Notes: generated by a model not told the origin, from the letters alone. A stretch of 64,000 nucleotides of DNA from Candidatus Limnocylindria bacterium (GCA_041486085.1 JBGPKU010000007.1:14630-78629); one strand, 5' to 3'. Positions 4,836-38,535 are shown, counted from the stretch's first letter. A program made the numbers and translations.

Positions 4836-6455
4836 ATGCGCAGCTTGCAGCGCGAGCCGGGTGTCCTGCTCGCGCTGCTTGCTGTGATCGGTCTGGTGGC
4901 GCTGTTCATCGTCTACCCGCAACTCCGCGTCATCGCGACGCCAGGCACCGGGTACATCGATTTCATCAGCGGCGGCACCTGGGTCCGCTCGACCTGGCAA
5001 TCGATCCAGGTCATGGTCCTCTCGACGACGACCGCGGTGCTGCTCGGCTTCGTGTTCGCGTACGGGATGGTCTACACGAACATGCCCTGGAAGCGGTTCT
5101 TCCGGGTCATCGGCATTCTGCCGCTGCTCTCGCCGCCGTTCGTCGTGGCGGCGGCCTACGTCATCCTGTTCGGCCCGCGCGGACTCATCTCGTACGGAGT
5201 CTTCGGACAGACGCTGAATATCTTCGGGCTCGGTGGCATCTGGGGGGTTCAGACGATCGCGTTCTTCCCGTTCGCGTACCAGCTGATCGCCGACGTTCTG
5301 TCACGCAGCGACGCTCGGCTCGAGCAGGCCGCGCGCAACCTCGGAGCCGGTCCCTGGCAGGTCTTCCGGACCGTGACGCTGCCGCTGTCGCGTCCGGGCC
5401 TCGGCGCGGCGATCCTCACGACGGCGATCTACGTGCTCGAGGACTTCGGCAACCCCGCCCTCATCGGCGGGACGTACACCGTGCTGCCCACTCAGGCGTA
5501 CGGCTTGATCAGCGGCTTCGGCGACCTCCCCGGGGCGACCGCGGTGAGCACGCTCCTCCTCGCCCTCGCGCTCATCCTCTACGTCGCGAAGATTCGCCTC
5601 GACGGCGGCCGTTCTTTCGTCACTGTGAGCGGGCGAGCATCGTCAATGCCGCGGCCGCCGGTGCCCGTGGCGCTGACCTTGACTTGCTTTGTCGCGTGCC
5701 TTCTGCTCTCGGTCGTCATCCTCACGGTTTACGGATCGCTGCTCGTCTCGGCGGTCACGCTGAACTTCCCGATGGTCCTGACGCCGACGATGCAGCACTT
5801 CGAATACATCACCACCGGCACGAATGGCACGGCGCTGCAGAACACGCTCGTCTTCGGCTTGGTGGCCGCTGCCTTCTCGGCCATCTTCGCCCTCGTCGCT
5901 GGGTGGCTCGTGGAGCGTGGCAGCTGGGCTGGCCGGGGCGTGCTTGATTTCCTGCTCATCATGCCGGCCGCGATCCCCGGCCTCTTCTTTGGGATCGGCT
6001 ACGCGACCGCCTTCAACGAGCCCTGGCTGGATTGGCTCGACCGCGGTGTGCTCATCATCATCTCGATGATCTTCTGGAACATCCCGGTCGGATATCAAGC
6101 GGCGGTCGCGGGCCTGCGTCAGATCGATCGCACGATGGACGAGGCCGCGACGAGCCTCGGTGCGTCGAGCCTGCGTGGATTCCGCGACGTGCTCATGCCG
6201 ATGCTCGGAGGGTCGCTCCGAGTCGGGTTCGTGACGACGTTCGTGCGCGCCGTGACCACGCTCTCGGTCGTCATCTTCCTGTTCACGCCGAGCAGCACCG
6301 TTGCCACGATCAGGATCTTCCAGCTGGTGAACGACCTGAACTTCGGTCGCGCGACCGCGTTCACGGTCGCCGACATCAGCATGGCTATGCTCGCGCTCGG
6401 CGCGTTCGCCGTGCTCGCACGAGGACGCGTCGCGCTTGGAGCGGCCCGTGCGTAG
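4836..6455 (+). CDS. ABC transporter permease (two fused MetI-like domains, FbpB/AfuB type)
   Basis: 539 aa and highly hydrophobic, with two EAA-loop copies: 'EQAARNLGAGPWQVFRTVTLP' and 'DEAATSLGASSLRGFRDVLMP'. Confidence 0.85.
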   Translation: MRSLQREPGVLLALLAVIGLVALFIVYPQLRVIATPGTGYIDFISGGTWVRSTWQSIQVMVLSTTTAVLLGFVFAYGMVYTNMPWKRFFRVIGILPLLSPPFVVAAAYVILFGPRGLISYGVFGQTLNIFGLGGIWGVQTIAFFPFAYQLIADVLSRSDARLEQAARNLGAGPWQVFRTVTLPLSRPGLGAAILTTAIYVLEDFGNPALIGGTYTVLPTQAYGLISGFGDLPGATAVSTLLLALALILYVAKIRLDGGRSFVTVSGRASSMPRPPVPVALTLTCFVACLLLSVVILTVYGSLLVSAVTLNFPMVLTPTMQHFEYITTGTNGTALQNTLVFGLVAAAFSAIFALVAGWLVERGSWAGRGVLDFLLIMPAAIPGLFFGIGYATAFNEPWLDWLDRGVLIIISMIFWNIPVGYQAAVAGLRQIDRTMDEAATSLGASSLRGFRDVLMPMLGGSLRVGFVTTFVRAVTTLSVVIFLFTPSSTVATIRIFQLVNDLNFGRATAFTVADISMAMLALGAFAVLARGRVALGAARA

Positions 6456-7557
6456 ACAGCCAGACCGAGCCGCAGGCGGCTGGGGCGAGGTCCACCTCAG
6501 GCTCGACAACGTCACGAAGAAGTTCGGCGAGACGACCGCGGTCGACGACATCTCGTTCGAGATCCCGCGCGGCGCGTTCGCGACACTCCTGGGTCCGTCC
6601 GGCTGCGGCAAGACGACGACGCTGCGCATGATCGCCGGGTTCTACGACCCGGATCGGGGCGACATCGTCCTCGGTGGGCGCCGAATCAACGAGCTGCCCG
6701 CGCACCGTCGCGGCACGGCCATGGTCTTCCAGGACTACGCCCTGTTCCCGCACATGACGGTTCGTGACAACGTGGGCTACGGCCTCCGCGTCGCCGGTGT
6801 GGCGAAGGAAGATCGTGACCGGCGCGTGGACGAGACCCTCGAGTTCGTGGGTCTCGGCAAGCTCGGCGACCGCTGGCCAAATCAACTATCAGGAGGGCAA
6901 CAACAACGAGTGGCCGTCGGGCGGGCGCTCGTCCTTCGCCCAGAGGTGCTTCTTCTGGACGAGCCGCTGTCGAACCTCGACGCCAAGCTTCGCGTGCAGC
7001 TGCGCTGGGAGCTGCGCAGCCTTCAGCAGCAGCTCGGGATGACCTTCGTCTACGTGACCCACGATCAGGACGAGGCGCTCTCGCTCTCGGACTGGATCGC
7101 CGTGATGAACGCGGGCAAGGTCGAGCAGCACGGCACGCCGCTCGAGATCTACTACCGCCCGCGCACGTCGTTCCTCGCCGACTTCGTCGGCGCGGTGAAC
7201 CTCGTGCCCGGGACCGTGCGCGAAGTGCGCGGGGACGAGGTGGTGGTCGCGTTCGGCGAGCGCGCCGTCACGGTGCGCAGGCCGAGCGGCCTCGACCTGG
7301 CCGCCGGGCGCGCCGTCCGCCTCTGCGTCCGTCCCGAGGCGCTCACGCTCCGTCCGCCCTCCGCGGACACCGACGGTGTCCGCCTGCCGGGCGTCGTCGC
7401 GCGCCGTGCGTTCCTGGGGGACCTCATGCGGTACTGGGTGACCGTGGATGGTCGCGAGTGGATCGTCGATCAACCCGATCCGGGTGCCGCCGCCGACTTC
7501 GACGGTCCGGTGACCGTTGCGGTGAAGCCCGAGCGCATCCATGTCATTGCGGAGTAA
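6436..7557 (+). CDS. ABC transporter ATP-binding protein (FbpC/PotA-like)
   Basis: Walker A 'GPSGCGKTT', signature 'LSGGQQQRVAVGRAL', Walker B 'LLLDEP', and a C-terminal TOBE-like region. The start is TTG 6436 or GTG 6448, overlapping the permease end. Confidence 0.9.
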   Translation: MERPVRRQPDRAAGGWGEVHLRLDNVTKKFGETTAVDDISFEIPRGAFATLLGPSGCGKTTTLRMIAGFYDPDRGDIVLGGRRINELPAHRRGTAMVFQDYALFPHMTVRDNVGYGLRVAGVAKEDRDRRVDETLEFVGLGKLGDRWPNQLSGGQQQRVAVGRALVLRPEVLLLDEPLSNLDAKLRVQLRWELRSLQQQLGMTFVYVTHDQDEALSLSDWIAVMNAGKVEQHGTPLEIYYRPRTSFLADFVGAVNLVPGTVREVRGDEVVVAFGERAVTVRRPSGLDLAAGRAVRLCVRPEALTLRPPSADTDGVRLPGVVARRAFLGDLMRYWVTVDGREWIVDQPDPGAAADFDGPVTVAVKPERIHVIAE

Positions 7558-31767: not shown

Positions 31768-32222
31768 TGCGCGGCTTTCTGTGGCTGGCGATCGGCTCCG
31801 CGATCTTCATCGGCATCACGTTCTTCGAACAGTTCCCGATCATCGGATGGGTCGGCGGGTTCGCGTCGATCGCCGTCTGGATATGGCTGACCCGGCGGTT
31901 GCTCAGCGACAGCGAATTCGACGTGATCCGAAGCGGCATCGGGACCGTTTGGTCCGCGATGATCGGGGCGGTCACGGGTTTCGTCGGCGCGTTCAGTGCC
32001 TGGCTCGCCCAGACCGGCAGCCTCTTCGGCTTCACCACGCCGCCCGGCGATCGGTTCGGCGCGGCATTCGGATTCGTCGGCGCATCGCTTGGCATCCTGT
32101 ACTGGCCGATCGTCGGCGCGATCGTGTGCGCGGTCACCGCCATCGCGATCACGAGCCGCCGCGTTGGCGCCGTGCGCCGCCCCTCGGATGGTGCGCTCGA
32201 GGATGGGCGGTCCGATGTTTGA
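31767..32222 (+). CDS. membrane protein (4 predicted TM segments)
   Basis: ATG 31767 overlaps the upstream stop (TGATG). 'MRGFLWLAIGSAIFIGITFF...'; hydrophobic throughout. Confidence 0.6.
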   Translation: MRGFLWLAIGSAIFIGITFFEQFPIIGWVGGFASIAVWIWLTRRLLSDSEFDVIRSGIGTVWSAMIGAVTGFVGAFSAWLAQTGSLFGFTTPPGDRFGAAFGFVGASLGILYWPIVGAIVCAVTAIAITSRRVGAVRRPSDGALEDGRSDV

Positions 32223-32240
32223 GGCCACGCGCCTCGACCG

Positions 32241-34250
32241 TTAGGCGACTCGCCTGCGCTTGTGCGACACGTAGTCGACCAACACGTACTCGCCCAGCCG
32301 CTCGGGCTCGACGTAGAACGCACGGCCGGTGTTGATCTTCGACATCTGATTGACGAAATCGACGAGGTAGTGACCGCGCGCGAGCATGAAGGTGTTGATC
32401 GTGATCTGCTCGCGCGTGCAGCGGACGACCTCGCGCAGTGTCTCCTGGAAGGTCCGGGGCGTCGGCGGGTAATTGAAGCGCGGCTCCGGATCTCCCGCCT
32501 CGAAGTGCGCGGTGGGCTCGCCGTCGGTGATCAGGATGATCTGCTTGTTCTTCCCGCGTGACCGGGACAGGAGACGGCGCGCGGTCGAGAACGCGTGCTG
32601 CATGTTGGTGCCGTAGATGTACTCGTTCCAGGTGAGCCCCGGCAGATCGGCGGGCTTCAGCTCCTGCGCCAGCGCGGAGAACCCGACGATGTAGAGATCG
32701 TCCTTCGGGAAGGTCGTGCGGATCAGGGAGTCGAGCGCGTGCGTGACCTTCTTCGCGGCGAGGAAGCAGCCGCGGAAGAGCATCGAGCGCGACACGTCGA
32801 CCAGGATCGCCGTGGCGGACTGCGTCATGAGCTCCGTCCGGTAGACCTCGAAGTCCTTCGCGTTCAGCTTCACCGGGACCTTCGCTCCGTCGCGAAAGAT
32901 CGCGTTGCGCACGGTCGCCGGGAGATCCAGCAGGAACGGGTCGCCGAACTCGTAGACCTTGAGCTCGTCCGTCGGGTCGCCGCCGCGGCCCCGGGTCTTC
33001 GACCGATGGCTGCCGAACGCATCGCGCTTGAGCGTCGCGAAGATCTCCTCGAGCGAGCGCTGGCCGATCTTGCGGATGCCACGCGGCGTCAGCTCGTAGC
33101 GCTCCCCGTCCTTTCTGATGAGGCCGGCTTCCTCGAGAAGCTCGATCATCTTCTGGAGCTGCTCGAGCGACTGGCGCGCGCCCGCGCCCGCGAGGCGCTC
33201 GACCTGATCGGGGTCGAGGGGATCGAGATCGTCGGAGGACCGCGCGCTCCGGACGATGTCCTCCATGTCGGACAGCTGATTCATCTCATCCATGAGCCCG
33301 AGCGCCTCCGCCAGGCTCACCGGCTCGTCGCCGGTCATACCGTGCTCGTAGCTCTCCATCGGTACGAGCTGCGACAGCGTGTCCGCGAGCTCGTTCATCG
33401 CTGACTGCAGGCCGGGATCGGCGAACGCTGTGCCGAGGAGCTCTTCGAGCTGCTGACGCATGTCGCTCGACATGCTCTGCCAGAGCGAGCGCATCGCGGC
33501 CATACCCTGTCCGAGCTGGCGCAGGAGGTCGTCCCAGTCCTTCGCGCCGCCCGCGAGCTCCGGGTACTGCCGTTGGAACGCCTCGAAGTCCGGCTCGCCG
33601 CCCTCCATACGCTCCTTCAGCGAGCGGTTCAGGTCGCGGATCATCTGACGGGTGCGCTCGAGCTGCTCGGGCGTCAGGTTCTGCAGCGACTCGCGCATGT
33701 TCTTGAAGTACGAGCCGAGCACCTGCTGCTGCAGCTCGTTCATCAGCTCCTGGTATTTCTCCGCTGCCTTCGGCTCGACGAACTCGTAGTCCTTCAGCGC
33801 CCGCACCGCGCGCCCGAAGTCCTCGGGCAACGCGTCGAGCTGCGCGAGCCTGTCCTGCGCGAGGCGCTCCATCGCCTGATGCAGCTGCTCGTTGGGCGCC
33901 TCGGCCGAGCGGCGGCGCTCCAACCCCTCGCGCTCCAGGCGCTTCACCTCGTCGAGCTTCGCCTTCAGCTGGTCGAACGCCGTCGAGAGGTCATGCCGCT
34001 GTGCGCGCCGCTGCTTCGCCGAGCGAAGCCGTTCGAGCAGATCCTTCATCCCGTCCATCCGGCCGGGGATCCCCCAGCGCGACAGCCGCGCGAGCGCGTC
34101 CTCGAGGTCGCCGCCCGAGAGCAGCTCGTCGGACATCGCCGCTAGCAGCTCATCCGCCTCGAGCGCGTCGAGCCGCTGAGTGCCGTCCCAGCGCGCGTAC
34201 TTGATGTCGCGATCGAAGTCCCGCAGCGGGGGGGTCTCGTTCATGCGCAC
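32241..34250 (-). CDS. vWA domain-containing protein (COG4867-like, long helical N-terminal region)
   Basis: 669 aa. C-terminal vWA domain with MIDAS 'LVDVSRSM' and 'ILITDGEPT'. The N-terminal ~450 aa are E/Q/L/R-rich and helical. Start is GTG 34250 or ATG 34244. Confidence 0.8.
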   Translation of the reverse strand: MRMNETPPLRDFDRDIKYARWDGTQRLDALEADELLAAMSDELLSGGDLEDALARLSRWGIPGRMDGMKDLLERLRSAKQRRAQRHDLSTAFDQLKAKLDEVKRLEREGLERRRSAEAPNEQLHQAMERLAQDRLAQLDALPEDFGRAVRALKDYEFVEPKAAEKYQELMNELQQQVLGSYFKNMRESLQNLTPEQLERTRQMIRDLNRSLKERMEGGEPDFEAFQRQYPELAGGAKDWDDLLRQLGQGMAAMRSLWQSMSSDMRQQLEELLGTAFADPGLQSAMNELADTLSQLVPMESYEHGMTGDEPVSLAEALGLMDEMNQLSDMEDIVRSARSSDDLDPLDPDQVERLAGAGARQSLEQLQKMIELLEEAGLIRKDGERYELTPRGIRKIGQRSLEEIFATLKRDAFGSHRSKTRGRGGDPTDELKVYEFGDPFLLDLPATVRNAIFRDGAKVPVKLNAKDFEVYRTELMTQSATAILVDVSRSMLFRGCFLAAKKVTHALDSLIRTTFPKDDLYIVGFSALAQELKPADLPGLTWNEYIYGTNMQHAFSTARRLLSRSRGKNKQIILITDGEPTAHFEAGDPEPRFNYPPTPRTFQETLREVVRCTREQITINTFMLARGHYLVDFVNQMSKINTGRAFYVEPERLGEYVLVDYVSHKRRRVA

Positions 34251-34279
34251 ACACCGGCGCTCGTCCGGCAGCCCTCTCG

Positions 34280-34517
34280 CTCGCTGTTGGCTGCGCCGGC
34301 CCGCCGCTCGCGGCCCGCGATGCGCACGGGCCGGCTGGGCGCAAGCGCTCGTCGCGAGAACTCCGCGCCGCTCGCCGTCTTCGAGAGGACCCTTGGCCAG
34401 GGCGGCGCCGCGCTGCGGATGGCGAGCCGGCCGACACTCCCTCGACGAGCGCTTGCGCCCAGGCCGCCCGTGCGGAACGCGCGACGTGGACGGCGGGCGG
34501 CCGTAGCCAACAGCGAG
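34280..34517. repeat. 238-bp imperfect palindrome (long inverted repeat) in the AAA+/vWA intergenic spacer
   Basis: Termini CTCGCTGTTGGCT (34280-34292) and AGCCAACAGCGAG (34505-34517). Perfect 20-bp blocks CTGGGCGCAAGCGCTCGTCG (34335-34354) and CGACGAGCGCTTGCGCCCAG (34443-34462). All pairs share the symmetry centre 34398.5. Confidence 0.85.
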
Positions 34518-34569
34518 GACCGGCCGTGGCGGCGGCGAGCTCTCAACGCTCCCGACGCCAGGAGCTGCG

Positions 34570-35967
34570 TCACGCGCGGAAGGTCGAGCGCGACTCGCCG
34601 CGCTCCTTGTTCAGCTTGCGATTCAGGTGCAGGCCCTCGAGCACGAACTCGACGGCCGCCGCGACCGTCGCGGGGTTGCCGGCCGCGCCGACCTTGGCCA
34701 CAGCGCCCTTCATTCCCGGGATCTGCAGCGCCTGCTTCACGTATTCCTGGGATGCCAGGCTCGATGACACGTGCATCGTCGCGCCGCGCTGGAACGCGGC
34801 CAGCAGCGCATCGAACTCGCCGATCGAGAACGTGCGGTTGAAGACGTTGAGCACGGCGCGCTGCGCGAGGCGCTCGATGACACGCTCCTCCGTCACATCG
34901 CCGACCGACTCGAGCTCGATCTTGCCGGCGGTCGATGCGATGACCGCGGGCATGTCGCTGATGCGCGGAACGACGGTCGTCTCGCCGGTCCGCAGCGCGC
35001 GCTTCAACGCGCTCGACACGAGGTTCTCGTAGTTCGCGACGGAGACGCGCACCGACACGCCTGACCGCTGCGAGATCTCGGGCGAGCGGCGCGCGAGCTG
35101 CGAGATCTCAGCAAGGATCTCCTTCATGTATGCGGGGATGATCGTGTTGATGCCCTCGTCGATGAAGACGTTGCGCTCCTGCTCCATGATCCCGACCTCG
35201 GTGCCGATCTCCTTCGGATAGTGCGTGCGGATCTGCGAGCCGAAGCGGTCCTTGAGCGGGGTGATGATGCGTCCCCGGTTGGTGTAGTCCTCCGGGTTCG
35301 CCGACGCGACGACGAAGAGATCGAGCGGTAGCCGCACCTTGTACCCGCGGATCTGCACGTCGCGCTCCTCCATGACGTTGAGGAGGCTCACCTGCACGCG
35401 CTCCGCGAGGTCGGGGAGCTCGTTCAAGGCGAAGATGCCGCGGTGCGTGCGAGGCACGAGGCCGTAGTGGATCGTGAGCTCGTCGGACAGGTAGCGACCC
35501 TCGGCGACCTTGATGGGGTCGACCTCGCCGATGAGGTCGGCCACGGAGATGTCCGGCGTCGCCAGCTTCTCGGTGTAGCGCTGGTCCGGCGTGAGCCAGA
35601 CGAGCTCGACGCTGTCGCCGTCATTGGCCACGCGATACCGGCAGGCCGCGCAGATCGGCGCGAAGGGATCGTCGTTGATCTCGCAGCCGGCGATCGCGGG
35701 TACCGCCGGATCGAGCAGCTCGATGAGACGCCGCGCGATGCGCGTCTTCGCCTGGCCGCGCTCGCCCAGGAAGATGATGTCCTGGCCCGAGAGGATGGCG
35801 TTCTCGATCTGCGGGAGCACGGTCGACTCGTAGCCGACGATGCCCTGGAAGAGGTCCCGCTTCTTCGCGACGGACGCGATAAGGTTTGCTCGAAGCTCCA
35901 CCTTCACGGATCGCGGCCGGTAGTCAGTCTCGCGAAGCTCGCCGATCTTCTGCGGGCGATCAGCCAT
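34570..35967 (-). CDS. AAA+ ATPase, ChlI/BchI (Mg-chelatase subunit I)-like, COG1239-like
   Basis: 465 aa with P-loop 'FLGERGQAKT', 'GIFALNELPDLAERVQVSLLNVMEE' and 'VVASANPEDY'. Confidence 0.8.
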   Translation of the reverse strand: MADRPQKIGELRETDYRPRSVKVELRANLIASVAKKRDLFQGIVGYESTVLPQIENAILSGQDIIFLGERGQAKTRIARRLIELLDPAVPAIAGCEINDDPFAPICAACRYRVANDGDSVELVWLTPDQRYTEKLATPDISVADLIGEVDPIKVAEGRYLSDELTIHYGLVPRTHRGIFALNELPDLAERVQVSLLNVMEERDVQIRGYKVRLPLDLFVVASANPEDYTNRGRIITPLKDRFGSQIRTHYPKEIGTEVGIMEQERNVFIDEGINTIIPAYMKEILAEISQLARRSPEISQRSGVSVRVSVANYENLVSSALKRALRTGETTVVPRISDMPAVIASTAGKIELESVGDVTEERVIERLAQRAVLNVFNRTFSIGEFDALLAAFQRGATMHVSSSLASQEYVKQALQIPGMKGAVAKVGAAGNPATVAAAVEFVLEGLHLNRKLNKERGESRSTFRA

Positions 35968-36856
35968 TCACGGGATCTCCTCTGAGCACCATCGGTGCTT
36001 TCTCGCCACGGTCCGCCGCCAGAGCGGCGCGGACCTCGGGGATGTCGTACGTGCCGCGGCCGGAGAGCTCTTCGAGCCGCGCCGCGCGCCGCTCAAGCTC
36101 CGCGCCGAGCGCCTCCGAGCCCTCCCCTCGAAGGTGCTCGAGCAGCGCGAGCTCGCTCTCGGCGTCGTGGGCGAAGGTGTCGTCGCCCGGGTCGTGCGTG
36201 ACAAGCGGAGTGAGCGACACGCCGCCGGCGCGGTCACCGAGGCGGTGCAGCGAGACGACGCGCCGTGCGTGCCCGCCGTGCGGCGTGCCGTAGATGCGCA
36301 TGACCATGAGGAGATCGACGCGGGCGAGGTCCGCCGGCGCCACGCCGAGCTCCTCGGTAAGCTGCGTGACGGCCTCCTCGGCGCTGTCCGCGTGCAGGGT
36401 GGAGCCGAGCGCGTAGCCGCGCGCCAGCGTGGCGAACACGCGCAGCGCCTTCGGGCCCCAGAGGTACACCGGCAGATGGGACGACAGCTCGTTCGCGAGA
36501 AGGATCGTGTCGTCCGGCTGCGTTTGCGCCACGAAGTCGAATGTCTCCGACCAGCCGCGGATGAAGATCCGACGCGTCCGCCGTGGGAGGTAGTCGAGAA
36601 GCGCGGTCAGCGTGGTCGTCTTGCCGGAGTGGGGCTGCTCCGCGGCGATGAGCAGCGAGCCGTGCGCCTCGAGGGCCATGCCACACAGTGCCGCGGTCCG
36701 TGCGTCCATGTTGCCCGCTTCGACGATCTCGGTGATCGACATCGGCACCGGCGGCTCCCAGTTCCAGCCCCACCAACCCACCGGCACGTCGTAGTCGCGC
36801 GCCGAGAGAGGCTGTTCCGCGATCACATACCGACGCCCCGCGCGGTGCGGCTCCAT
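35960..36856 (-). CDS. divergent T2SS/T4SS-type (VirB11/CpaF/GspE-like) ATPase core protein
   Basis: ATG 36856, 298 aa. Walker A 'QPHSGKTTTLTALL' and His-box-like 'ALGSTLHADSAEEAVTQL'. The usual 'GEvR' reads 'ANELSS'. 8-nt overlap with the downstream AAA+ start (ATGGCTGA). Confidence 0.6.
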   Translation of the reverse strand: MEPHRAGRRYVIAEQPLSARDYDVPVGWWGWNWEPPVPMSITEIVEAGNMDARTAALCGMALEAHGSLLIAAEQPHSGKTTTLTALLDYLPRRTRRIFIRGWSETFDFVAQTQPDDTILLANELSSHLPVYLWGPKALRVFATLARGYALGSTLHADSAEEAVTQLTEELGVAPADLARVDLLMVMRIYGTPHGGHARRVVSLHRLGDRAGGVSLTPLVTHDPGDDTFAHDAESELALLEHLRGEGSEALGAELERRAARLEELSGRGTYDIPEVRAALAADRGEKAPMVLRGDPVNG

Positions 36857-36889
36857 CGATCGAGGGTAGCACGCTAATCTCTTCGTTCT

Positions 36890-37105
36890 GTGAAGGAAAA
36901 GAGTCAGAGGCGAGCATCCGCGCGGCGATCGACGAGCGCGCCGTCGCCGACCGAAGGCGCTGGGGCCGACATCGCGCCGCAGGACATCAACGACAAGGAG
37001 CTGCTCGCCACGCAAGCACGCGAAGCGGTGGAAAAGAGCGCGGCCGAGCTGCGCAAGCAGCGCGTTCCGATCACCACCGAACCGCCCACGGTGTATCGAC
37101 CCTGA
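36890..37105 (+). CDS. small hypothetical protein
   Basis: 71 aa from a GTG start with high GC3. Its stop (TGA 37103-37105) overlaps an in-frame CTG of the amidase reading frame. Confidence 0.4.
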   Translation: MKEKSQRRASARRSTSAPSPTEGAGADIAPQDINDKELLATQAREAVEKSAAELRKQRVPITTEPPTVYRP

Positions 37106-37161
37106 GCGCCCACCGCTTTGCGACCGCAGTCGAGCTTCGCGCGGCGCTGCGCAAGCGGCAG

Positions 37162-38535
37162 GTGTCGGCGCTCGAGCTCGCCGAGGAGTTCTGCGACCTG
37201 CTCGAGCGTGTCGGTCCGAAGTACAACGCGGTCGCGACCGTCACGCGCGAGCGCGCGCGCGCCGAAGCGAAACGCGCCGACGCCGCCCTCGGGCGCCGCG
37301 ACCCCCGTCCCCTTCTCGGCGTGCCCTATGGCGCGAAGGATCTCCTCGCGGCAAAGGGCGCGCCGACGACCTGGGGCGCGCCACCGTATCGCGATCAGGT
37401 ATTCGCCGAGGATGCGACCGCGGTAGCGCGGCTCGCGCGCTCCGGTGCCGTGCTCGCGGCAAAGCTCGCGATGGTCGAGCTCGCCGGCGGCGGCGGCTAT
37501 CGCTATCCCAGCGCGTCACTGCAGGGCCCCGGTCGAAACCCCTGGAATACGGAGCGCTGGTCCGGCGGATCCTCGAGCGGCTCCGCGGCGGCGGTCGGCG
37601 GCGGGATCGTGCCGTATGCGCTCGGGAGCGAGACGTCCGGCTCCATCGGTACACCTTCCGCGTACTGCGGCGTCACCGGCCTGCGCCCGACGTACGGTCT
37701 GGTGTCGCGCAGCGGCGCGATGGCCCTCTCGTGGACGCTCGACAAGATCGGCCCGATCGCGCGGACAGCGGAGGATTGCTCCCTCGTGCTCGAGGCGATC
37801 GCCGGACCTGACGCGAGCGACGCGACGTCCTCGGGCAAGAGGTACAGGCCGCTCCGCACGGCCGCCGCGCGCGCCGCGGTGAAGGGCGCGCGTGTCGCGT
37901 TCGCCGAAGAGGACATCGCCGACCACGCGTCCCCAGAGGCGAAGGCGGCGCTCGAGAGGGGCGTCGCGGAGTTCAAACGCGTTGCGCGCAACTTCACGCG
38001 CGCCACCCTTCCGGCTGATATTCCATTTGGACCGATGGTCGGCACGGTCTACGGCGCGGAGGGCGCGACGATCTTCGCAGAGCTCATCGAGGGCGATCGT
38101 TTTGAGCAGCTGGTCGACGCGCGGCAGAAGGCAGGTCTCCGTGCCGCCCTGGATATCCGCGCGCGTGACTACCTGCAGGCGATGCGCCTACGCGTCAAGC
38201 TCTCGCAGGCGTTCGCTGACCTGTTCAAGGGAGCCGACGTGATCCTCTCGGCCGGACGAACGATCACGGCCACGCCCGTCACCCAGGCGCTCGACATGCC
38301 GCCGACCACCGCGAGCAATCCGCCACAGACCAAGCGGCCGGGCAACACCGGGCTCATCCCGGCTGGCAACCTCGCCGGAGTGCCCGCGATCTTCTTTCCC
38401 TGCGGCTTCGGCACGGACGGGCTGCCCGTGGGGCTCCAGCTCGTCGGTCCACCGTTCAGCGAGCCGCTGCTGCTCGCGCTCGCGTCCGCCTACCAGCGCG
38501 AGACGGCGCACCACACCAAAAGACCGACAAGCTGA
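37162..38535 (+). CDS. amidase (amidase-signature family, GatA-like)
   Basis: 'GGSSSGSAAAV' AS signature and 'GSIGTPSAYCGV'. GTG 37162 is the first canonical start, but the in-frame upstream peptide 'FATAVELRAALRKRQ' looks like a genuine amidase N-terminus (possible CTG 37102 start). Confidence 0.85.
   Translation: MSALELAEEFCDLLERVGPKYNAVATVTRERARAEAKRADAALGRRDPRPLLGVPYGAKDLLAAKGAPTTWGAPPYRDQVFAEDATAVARLARSGAVLAAKLAMVELAGGGGYRYPSASLQGPGRNPWNTERWSGGSSSGSAAAVGGGIVPYALGSETSGSIGTPSAYCGVTGLRPTYGLVSRSGAMALSWTLDKIGPIARTAEDCSLVLEAIAGPDASDATSSGKRYRPLRTAAARAAVKGARVAFAEEDIADHASPEAKAALERGVAEFKRVARNFTRATLPADIPFGPMVGTVYGAEGATIFAELIEGDRFEQLVDARQKAGLRAALDIRARDYLQAMRLRVKLSQAFADLFKGADVILSAGRTITATPVTQALDMPPTTASNPPQTKRPGNTGLIPAGNLAGVPAIFFPCGFGTDGLPVGLQLVGPPFSEPLLLALASAYQRETAHHTKRPTS

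Follow-up and report, generated by a model that had tools for sequence, protein, structure and literature searches.

Introduction

Pairs formed by an AAA+ ATPase and a protein with a von Willebrand factor A (vWA) domain insert metals or remodel complexes, as exemplified by the Rubisco activase CbbQO, NorQD, the cobalt and magnesium chelatases, and midasin. In type II/IV secretion ATPases, the N-terminal (N2/PAS-like) domain builds the hexamer interface. The present study concerns three adjacent genes, referred to as A, B, and C, which encode a protein related to the latter ATPases, an AAA+ ATPase and a vWA protein, respectively. They are located on a stretch of 64,000 nucleotides (C7:14630-78629; hereafter "the window") of a metagenome-assembled genome of a soil Chloroflexota bacterium (2.9 Mb, 82% complete, approximately 69% GC), whose nearest named relatives are Candidatus Limnocylindria (phylum Chloroflexota).

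The general principle by which vWA and MoxR proteins act together has been described (PMC7159879). In NorQ-NorD, ATP hydrolysis remodels a partner, and a mechanism for NorQD has been described (PMC13036017). Ternary MoxR-vWA conflict systems, in which a third protein accompanies the pair, have been divided into VMAP, iSTAND, FtsH, and beta-propeller types (Kaur et al., 2020, PMC7159879). Another AAA+/vWA pair, Rv0958/Rv0959 of Mycobacterium tuberculosis, is widespread; no functional study of this pair or of COG4867 was found in the literature. MSMEG_5512, the Mycobacterium smegmatis orthologue of Rv0958, has been recovered among nucleic-acid-associated proteins by affinity purification-mass spectrometry, and FLAG-tagged MSMEG_5512 pulled down no DNA (PMC7092591).

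The analysis reported here established the identity of the proteins encoded by A, B, and C, the conservation of their operon and a genome-level dependence of A on B. With a probability of roughly 0.6, we interpret the module as a protein-remodelling unit of the AAA+/vWA type, inherited vertically, to which a stripped P-loop protein of FlaI type has been added as a partner or client. No published description of the trio was found, and so far as the literature was searched this agrees with the view, taken in a preliminary description of the locus made from its sequence alone, that the trio is not part of any described system.

Results

A conserved three-gene unit in Chloroflexota

The three genes are located on the minus strand of the window, in the order A, B, C:

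35960..36856, minus strand: gene A, 298 amino acids, FlaI/archaeal-GspE-type ATPase domain without the N-terminal domain
34570..35967, minus strand: gene B, 465 amino acids, ChlI-like AAA+ ATPase, Rv0958-type partner
32241..34250, minus strand: gene C, 669 amino acids, Rv0959/Mb0984 family, with a helical N-terminal region, a winged helix and a vWA domain

GC contents at third codon positions (GC3) of 0.88, 0.92, and 0.92 for A, B, and C, respectively, indicated a strong coding signal in all three genes. Upstream of the ATG at 36856, GC3 drops to 0.62, and A orthologues begin at the same MEP/MES; this ATG is the correct start of A. The stop codon of A and the start codon of B overlap by 8 nucleotides (ATGGCTGA, reading gtg aat ggc tga / atg gct gat), from which we infer that translation of the two genes is coupled. 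GC3 revealed no coding signal in the 319-nucleotide spacer between B and C. All three genes are under purifying selection, with ratios of nonsynonymous to synonymous substitution rates (dN/dS) of 0.22-0.43 in A, 0.09-0.25 in B, and 0.12-0.38 in C. The open reading frame calls and GC3 values confirmed the three minus-strand genes that the preliminary description had placed at these positions, as well as its 8-nucleotide overlap of the first two. The motifs that it had quoted (QPHSGKTTTL, ANELSS, and GSTLHADSAEEA in A, and the metal ion-dependent adhesion site (MIDAS) DVSRS in C) were all present and are kept across relatives.

Eighty loci with A were retrieved, 59 of which were of the Limnocylindria type and showed A followed by B, as well as C wherever the contig reached that far. 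The gap between A and B in relatives ranged from -4 to 165 nucleotides and was mostly 0-31 nucleotides. Families f2 and f4 of the same class, with 38-42% identity of A, and family f51, with approximately 35% identity of A, have the order A-B-C as well. Family f51 includes Thermomicrobium roseum DSM 5159, on whose megaplasmid (NC_011961.1) A, B, and C correspond to TRD_RS11475 (annotated as "type II secretion system protein E"), TRD_RS11480 ("sigma 54-interacting transcriptional regulator") and TRD_RS11485 ("VWA domain-containing protein"), respectively. A second gene order, with C directly followed by A, was found on metagenome contigs of 66-67% and 49% GC. A, B, and C are a conserved syntenic unit rather than a chance adjacency, an explanation that the preliminary description had left standing and that conservation of the neighbourhood in Limnocylindria, f2, f4, and f51 now removes.

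Near the trio, no fourth gene was conserved across lineages; an amidase gene is kept only within family f1. The junctions of the trio tolerate insertions, as illustrated by an A-B gap of 3 kb (locus L093) and by B-C gaps of 1.6 kb (L097), approximately 1.1 kb (L016), and approximately 650 nucleotides (L017). In families f8, f24, f53, and f58, B orthologues with 54-65% identity occurred without C within 5 kb (L147, L150-L153, L159); linkage of B and C is therefore not universal. On one of the C-A contigs (L114, positions 6001-7296), the A homologue has 431 amino acids, including a C-terminal extension of approximately 160 residues without a Pfam match.

Co-occurrence of A with B

Co-occurrence was analyzed in an even set of 251 Chloroflexota genomes, with a threshold for A of E < 1e-45. 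A was detected in 41 of these genomes and B in 110. B was present in 40 of the 41 genomes with A, as opposed to 70 of the 210 genomes without A (Fisher p 1e-15). Since the sampled genomes are related to one another, this p value overstates their independence. Neither the family-level pattern, in which all nine families with A also have B (9/9), nor the existence of two independent gene orders rests on it.

Stand-alone copies of A were found at approximately 11 loci, some of them labelled Dehalococcoidia, as well as in families f25 and f29. In 9 of 11 genomes with a stand-alone A, B and C occurred elsewhere in the genome. In a tree of B, presence of A was patchy, with at least three separate clades showing linked A. 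An apparent tandem of A paralogues in f25 was rejected as an artefact of overlapping open reading frames; the neighbouring gene encodes a His_Phos_1 phosphatase.

Gene A encodes a FlaI/archaeal-GspE-type ATPase domain without the N-terminal domain

The match of A to the Pfam family T2SSE (PF00437) scored 25.4 bits (cut-off 24.9) and covered residues 43-98 only, while the best NCBIfam match, FlaI, remained far under its cut-off. A profile (A2) of 23 family members with 36-76% identity to A was then compared with the PDB. It matched GspE of Archaeoglobus fulgidus (2OAP, E 2e-26) and the archaellum ATPase FlaI (4II7, E 4e-19) in two blocks, one comprising the Walker A region and the other running from the Walker B/His-box region to the extreme C-terminus; the hidden Markov model (HMM) alignment extends to residue 499 of 511 in 2OAP. 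An AlphaFold2 model of A was obtained with a predicted local distance difference test score (pLDDT) of 87 and a predicted template modelling score (pTM) of 0.88. When this model was used as a Foldseek query, ranks 1-8 were occupied by 2OAP and FlaI (E approximately 1e-15 to 4e-17, TMq 0.69-0.73). The best match was 2OAP (E 4e-17, TMq 0.72), and CpaF, PilB/PilT, and VirB11 ranked well behind. The Pfam match is marginal; the assignment of A is solid because of the family profile and the structure model. In the preliminary description, A had been taken for a VirB11/CpaF-like ATPase. The superfamily core with altered catalytic motifs stands, and T2SSE-type models do match; the affiliation with VirB11/CpaF in particular does not, archaeal GspE and FlaI being nearest by both profile and fold.

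Homology starts at approximately residue 38 of A but at residue 233 of 2OAP, so that the whole N-terminal domain is absent from A. The following motifs were located:

36737..36784, minus strand: Trp/Pro-rich motif P.GWWGW.W.PP.P(M/L)S, residues 25-40, where the N-terminal domain would be
36614..36640, minus strand: Walker A EQPHSGKTT, aligned with GETASGKTTT of 2OAP
36551..36559, minus strand: R100-G101-W102 in place of the Asp box, which is IEDT in 2OAP (HMM alignment of vfvrGw to VVSIEDT)
36455..36493, minus strand: Walker B variant NELSSHLPVYLWG, aligned with LVGEIR--------D of FlaI
36386..36406, minus strand: His box GSTLHAD, with T153 and H155 invariant

Residues P25, W28, W29, G30, W33, P36, and S40 of the Trp/Pro-rich motif are invariant among 23 sequences (36-76% identity); confidence of the model over this motif was low to moderate (mean pLDDT of 63 for residues 21-30 and 71 for residues 31-40). 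In Walker A, G78, K79, and T80 are invariant, and the upstream glycines of GxxGxGK[ST] are lost. The Asp box (IEDxxE) is replaced by RGW.E, in which G101 is invariant, R100 is conserved in at least 90% of sequences and the position of the last Glu is often kept. Relative to the canonical hhhhGEhR, Walker B of A (LLANELSS; NELS.H.P.Y.W) has kept the Glu, has Asn for Gly and Ser for Arg, and is followed by an 8-residue insert; N122, E123, S125, H127, P129, Y131, and W133 are invariant. With the Asp box lost but the Lys and Thr of Walker A, the Glu of Walker B and the His of the His box invariant, A may or may not have the impaired catalysis that the preliminary description considered possible.

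A search that covered 1.84 billion representative proteins yielded 232 clusters of A homologues at 50% identity (E 1e-30 or better), mostly of 250-310 amino acids. A therefore represents a distinct family without the N-terminal domain rather than a one-off truncation, and this family appears to be unnamed.

Genes B and C encode the Chloroflexota version of the Rv0958/Rv0959 pair

The protein encoded by B matched the Pfam families AAA_5, Mg_chelatase, and Sigma54_activat and aligned with the structure of ChlI (8OSF, E 3e-11); against TIGR02030 (BchI-ChlI) it scored 43.2 bits (cut-off 466.95). B is a distant ChlI-like AAA+ ATPase of the helix-2-insert clade, in line with the ChlI/BchI-like protein seen in the preliminary description. 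Its identity across the phylum is 57-94%. Two nucleotide-binding motifs were assigned:

35743..35766, minus strand: Walker A GERGQAKT, with GERGQAK near-invariant in 78 orthologues
35413..35436, minus strand: Walker B IFALNELP, with Asn for the usual Asp, aligned with ILYVDEVNLL of ChlI

Among the same 78 orthologues, NELPDLAER and RSGVSVR are near-invariant, and ASANPEDY and PLKDRF, which by eye we take to be the sensor 1 and arginine-finger regions, are highly conserved. Three cysteines, C95, C106, and C109 (window 35641-35685), are also conserved. They lie in a segment that aligns with a stretch of ChlI which is presumably the helix-2 insert, and may form a metal or redox site.

The protein encoded by C matched Pfam VWA_2. 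According to precomputed Pfam assignments, which pertain to relatives rather than to a scan of C itself, proteins with 80-95% identity to C, as well as one with 42% identity, carry PF27532 (Mb0984_helical), PF13519 (VWA_2), and PF27098 (Rv0959_3rd). Two features of C were mapped:

33060..33170, minus strand: winged-helix-like segment LLEEAGLIRKDGERYELTPRGIRKIG, residues approximately 361-397
32784..32798, minus strand: MIDAS DxSxS (D485, S487, S489), completed by T548 and D576

The winged-helix-like segment is conserved in 58 orthologues and gave weak matches, under curated cut-offs, to HTH_45, HemN_C, and Sso10a. The five MIDAS residues (D485, S487, S489, T548, and D576) are invariant in the alignments. 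In Foldseek, the vWA domain of C best matched the VWA domain of NorD in NorQD complexes and the MIDAS domain of Rea1/MDN1 (midasin). Since the structure model of C was only moderate (pLDDT 66.6), nothing was drawn from its helical region. The vWA match and the invariant MIDAS bore out the vWA domain that the preliminary description had recognized in the third gene, next to a long helical N-terminal region. A helical hairpin of C (residues 287-375, window 33126-33392) resembles a single transcription activator-like effector (TALE) repeat (L.PDQV..LAG...Q.LE.LQ). PDB matches that suggested homology to TAL effectors were rejected, as summation of one TALE-like hairpin over many repeats inflates E.

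In Tsukamurella (Mycobacteriales), B-like and C-like genes occur together downstream of purH, a layout which we take to be that of Rv0957-Rv0959 in M. tuberculosis. On this basis, B-C is the Chloroflexota version of the widespread, functionally uncharacterised Rv0958/Rv0959 pair. A gene for 286 amino acids upstream of the Tsukamurella B was considered as a hidden homologue of A and rejected, since it encodes HTH_67 and its hhalign probability was 0.3%.

Intergenic elements and flanking genes

Two non-coding features accompany the trio:

34280..34517: near-palindrome of 238 nucleotides in the B-C spacer, with arms of 100 nucleotides that are 78% complementary
36857..36872, minus strand: GTGnTAnCCTCGnTCr directly before the start codon of A, resembling an extended -10 element

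Six other genomic sites match an arm of the near-palindrome with 78-84% identity. Some relatives carry the element at this position; in those that do not, the B-C gap is -3 to 33 nucleotides. The recurrence and the patchy presence indicate that it is likely to be a dispersed insertion resembling repetitive extragenic palindromic (REP) sequences or miniature inverted-repeat transposable elements (MITE). It might act as an intercistronic hairpin. An Rfam scan of 32000-37300 gave no significant match and one sub-threshold chance match. In an alignment of 56 regions upstream of A, the motif GTGnTAnCCTCGnTCr showed at least 90% conservation, while the remaining spacer varied. Judged by its sequence and position, it may be an extended -10-like element placed for a leaderless operon mRNA; scans for sigma-70 promoters and intrinsic terminators returned zero sites.

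The trio is flanked by genes of ordinary metabolic function, namely an amidase gene in divergent orientation and genes for a dienelactone hydrolase and luciferase-like oxidoreductases, as well as by a small convergent gene without a Pfam match. Base composition of the A-B-C module equals that of the genome. No pilus, secretion or platform genes were found in the neighbourhood of the trio, as the preliminary description had noted; T2SSF platform genes are present in the genome, but on other contigs. The trio is not a secretion or pilus system.

Discussion

A probable remodelling unit with a recruited third component

We regard A-B-C as one operon and as a variant of the AAA+/vWA remodelling theme, to which it adds a family of FlaI-type ATPase domains without the N-terminal domain. 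The example of NorQ-NorD, CobS-CobT, BchI-BchD, and midasin suggests how B and C might operate: B would assemble into an AAA+ ring to which C would bind, gripping a partner through its MIDAS, and ATP hydrolysis in B, by pulling or twisting C, would alter that partner. A would have been gained as a third component of the B-C pair in part of the Chloroflexota. With its P-loop kept, its Mg2+ site rebuilt and RGW in place of the Asp box, A most likely binds nucleotide and most likely serves B-C as a nucleotide-dependent partner, adaptor or client rather than as a secretion motor. Adjacency of C and A in the second gene order hints that the direct contact of A is C. Ring formation, physical contact of A with B-C, and the proposals as to which way the machine acts and on what client are inferred.

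Several observations weigh against a remodelling unit of which A is a part, and some of them favor the alternative that A is functionally unrelated to B-C, has hitch-hiked in their operon, merely sharing a promoter in some lineages, and has other partners, such as the phosphatases or glycosyltransferase beside its stand-alone copies. A is absent from 70 of the 110 Chloroflexota genomes with B, as well as from Tsukamurella (Actinomycetota); most B-C lineages thus lack A, and the core function does not need it. No residues or indels in B or C track the presence of A, which argues against A as an integral or obligate structural subunit and would fit hitch-hiking. The Asn for Asp exchange in Walker B means that ATPase activity of B is not guaranteed, and no client gene is conserved near the trio. 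One genome of the same class (G030, 98% complete) carries A but no B anywhere, the only such case among the 41; its A (L019, G030:C7 9871-10923) adjoins a gene for a luciferase-like monooxygenase. Moreover, A is unlinked in many lineages, and a phosphatase gene recurs beside stand-alone or C-linked copies of A (L124, L128, L130, L136, L137; L084-L101; L114). In f25 it encodes a His_Phos_1 phosphatase and is accompanied by a gene for a GT4 glycosyltransferase; next to the copies in Dehalococcoidia-like loci and on the C-A contigs, it encodes a HAD hydrolase. These neighbours possibly reflect a second functional link or a different role for A. Hitch-hiking is nevertheless improbable, in view of two linked gene orders (A-B-C and C-A) in which A is only 31-42% identical to that of the window, of the presence of B in all but one of the A-bearing genomes, and of the tightly coupled or overlapping A-B junction.

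The remaining alternatives concern what the module acts on. The module could target nucleic acid or the transcription/translation apparatus, with the winged helix of C binding DNA or RNA and the AAA+ ring remodelling a nucleoprotein complex; this is compatible with the remodelling unit and would specify its class of client. This is an unlikely specification. It draws on the conserved winged-helix-like segment of C, the recovery of MSMEG_5512 among nucleic-acid-associated proteins (PMC7092591), two contigs with A or C-A near the gene for ribosomal protein L25 (L114 also near mfd), and the RNA-binding vWA protein Ro60 among the fold matches of C. However, the tagged MSMEG_5512 brought down no DNA, the winged-helix matches are weak, those to Ro60 are poor (root-mean-square deviation of approximately 28-31 Å, low TM), and the links to L25 and mfd are lineage-specific. 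The preliminary description had also pointed to conflict systems dependent on nucleoside triphosphates (NTP), and a defence role would parallel the MoxR-vWA ternary systems with an inactive NTPase as third part: a helix-2-insert AAA+ protein, a vWA protein and a partly degenerate P-loop protein are combined here, as in iSTAND (PMC7159879), and A is distributed patchily among B-bearing lineages. That hint was not substantiated. A PADLOC scan of A, B, and C gave only weak coiled-coil and generic AAA+ matches, and Pfam and NCBIfam scans revealed no effector or variable domains in them. The module is single-copy, has genome-like composition and conserved housekeeping-type flanks, and is seemingly vertically inherited under strong purifying selection; B is well conserved across the phylum and its tree follows relatedness within the lineage of the window. 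Only one plasmid matched A, the megaplasmid of T. roseum, which is a second, chromosome-like replicon. The trio is probably not a defence system, and we consider such a role very improbable. Least credible is a class I (Mg/Co/Ni) tetrapyrrole chelatase with B-C as motor and A as accessory, an idea suggested by ChlI/BchI as the best characterised relatives of B and by a vWA partner typical of D/T subunits. It is already largely refuted here: none of the 21 genomes of the class that we searched contains the CobN/BchH family PF02514, while control genomes were positive, which extends genome-wide the absence of a chelatase H subunit noted in the preliminary description. In addition, the score of B lies far from the BchI-ChlI cut-off (43 against 467 bits), and C does not contain the N-terminal AAA+-like half of BchD.

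Within the favored remodelling unit, a more specific arrangement is conceivable, albeit doubtful: a machine with two engines, in which the FlaI-type ATPase, lacking its N-terminal domain, and the ChlI-type AAA+ ring would be linked mechanically; a single client would then be worked on by two P-loop motors of unrelated kind, one of RecA fold and one AAA+. In this arrangement, A would be held by the helical region or the MIDAS of C, which would replace the lost N-terminal domain. If true, it would offer a first way into the function of the Rv0958/Rv0959 pair, which is conserved in M. tuberculosis. This branch of AAA+/vWA pairs is conserved from mycobacteria to Chloroflexota, yet is without a known client, and its function is at present best approached through a third gene that is tightly linked to the pair and depends on it phyletically. 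Occurrence of the trio in T. roseum DSM 5159, a cultured thermophile, makes biochemistry feasible. The A family itself represents a motor domain of pili and archaella that is freed from its N-terminal domain and from membrane machinery, and thereby a case of motor-domain exaptation.

Comparison with known systems

With archaeal GspE (2OAP) and FlaI (4II7/4IHQ), A shares the C-terminal ATPase domain from its start to the last helices, including Walker A, the Glu of Walker B and the His box, as well as the C-terminal helical extension that is specific to the FlaI/archaeal GspE clade. It differs from them in the absence of the N-terminal domain of approximately 230 residues, in whose place it has a Trp-rich motif of approximately 16 residues, in RGW for the Asp box, and in the 8-residue insert after Walker B. 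Moreover, A adjoins no platform (T2SSF/FlaJ) or pilin gene.

An AAA+ protein paired with a vWA protein with intact MIDAS is common to the trio and to NorQ-NorD, CobS-CobT, BchI-BchD, RavA-ViaA, and midasin, and the vWA domain of C finds its best fold matches in NorD and the midasin MIDAS. In contrast to NorQ-NorD, CobS-CobT, and BchI-BchD, no client gene (nitric oxide reductase, CobN, BchH) is linked to the trio, and CobN/BchH is absent. The helical N-terminal region and winged helix of C were not matched to any of these partners in the fold search, and B belongs to a subfamily separate from their AAA+ proteins, with Asn in Walker B. The MoxR-vWA ternary systems resemble the trio in combining an AAA+ protein, a vWA protein and a third protein that is sometimes an inactive NTPase (PMC7159879). 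In the trio, however, the third component is of FlaI type with RecA fold, and PilT, VirB11, and ChlI are not mentioned in that paper; the trio also has no effector domains and is conserved in a housekeeping-like manner.

Compared with Rv0958/Rv0959 (MSMEG_5512 and its neighbour), the trio differs in the presence of A, which is missing from the Tsukamurella locus, the single actinobacterial locus examined, and C is only 30-33% identical to proteins of Tsukamurella, Nocardia, and Nonomuraea. The two-gene unit itself is the same. In both cases it consists of a ChlI-like AAA+ protein of approximately 460 amino acids, annotated as "magnesium chelatase" or "sigma-54 interacting", followed by a helical and vWA protein of approximately 660 amino acids. 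Close relatives of C carry Pfam domains named after Rv0959, and, apart from a few lineages without an adjacent C, the AAA+ gene is located directly upstream of the vWA gene in the window, in other Chloroflexota and in Tsukamurella.

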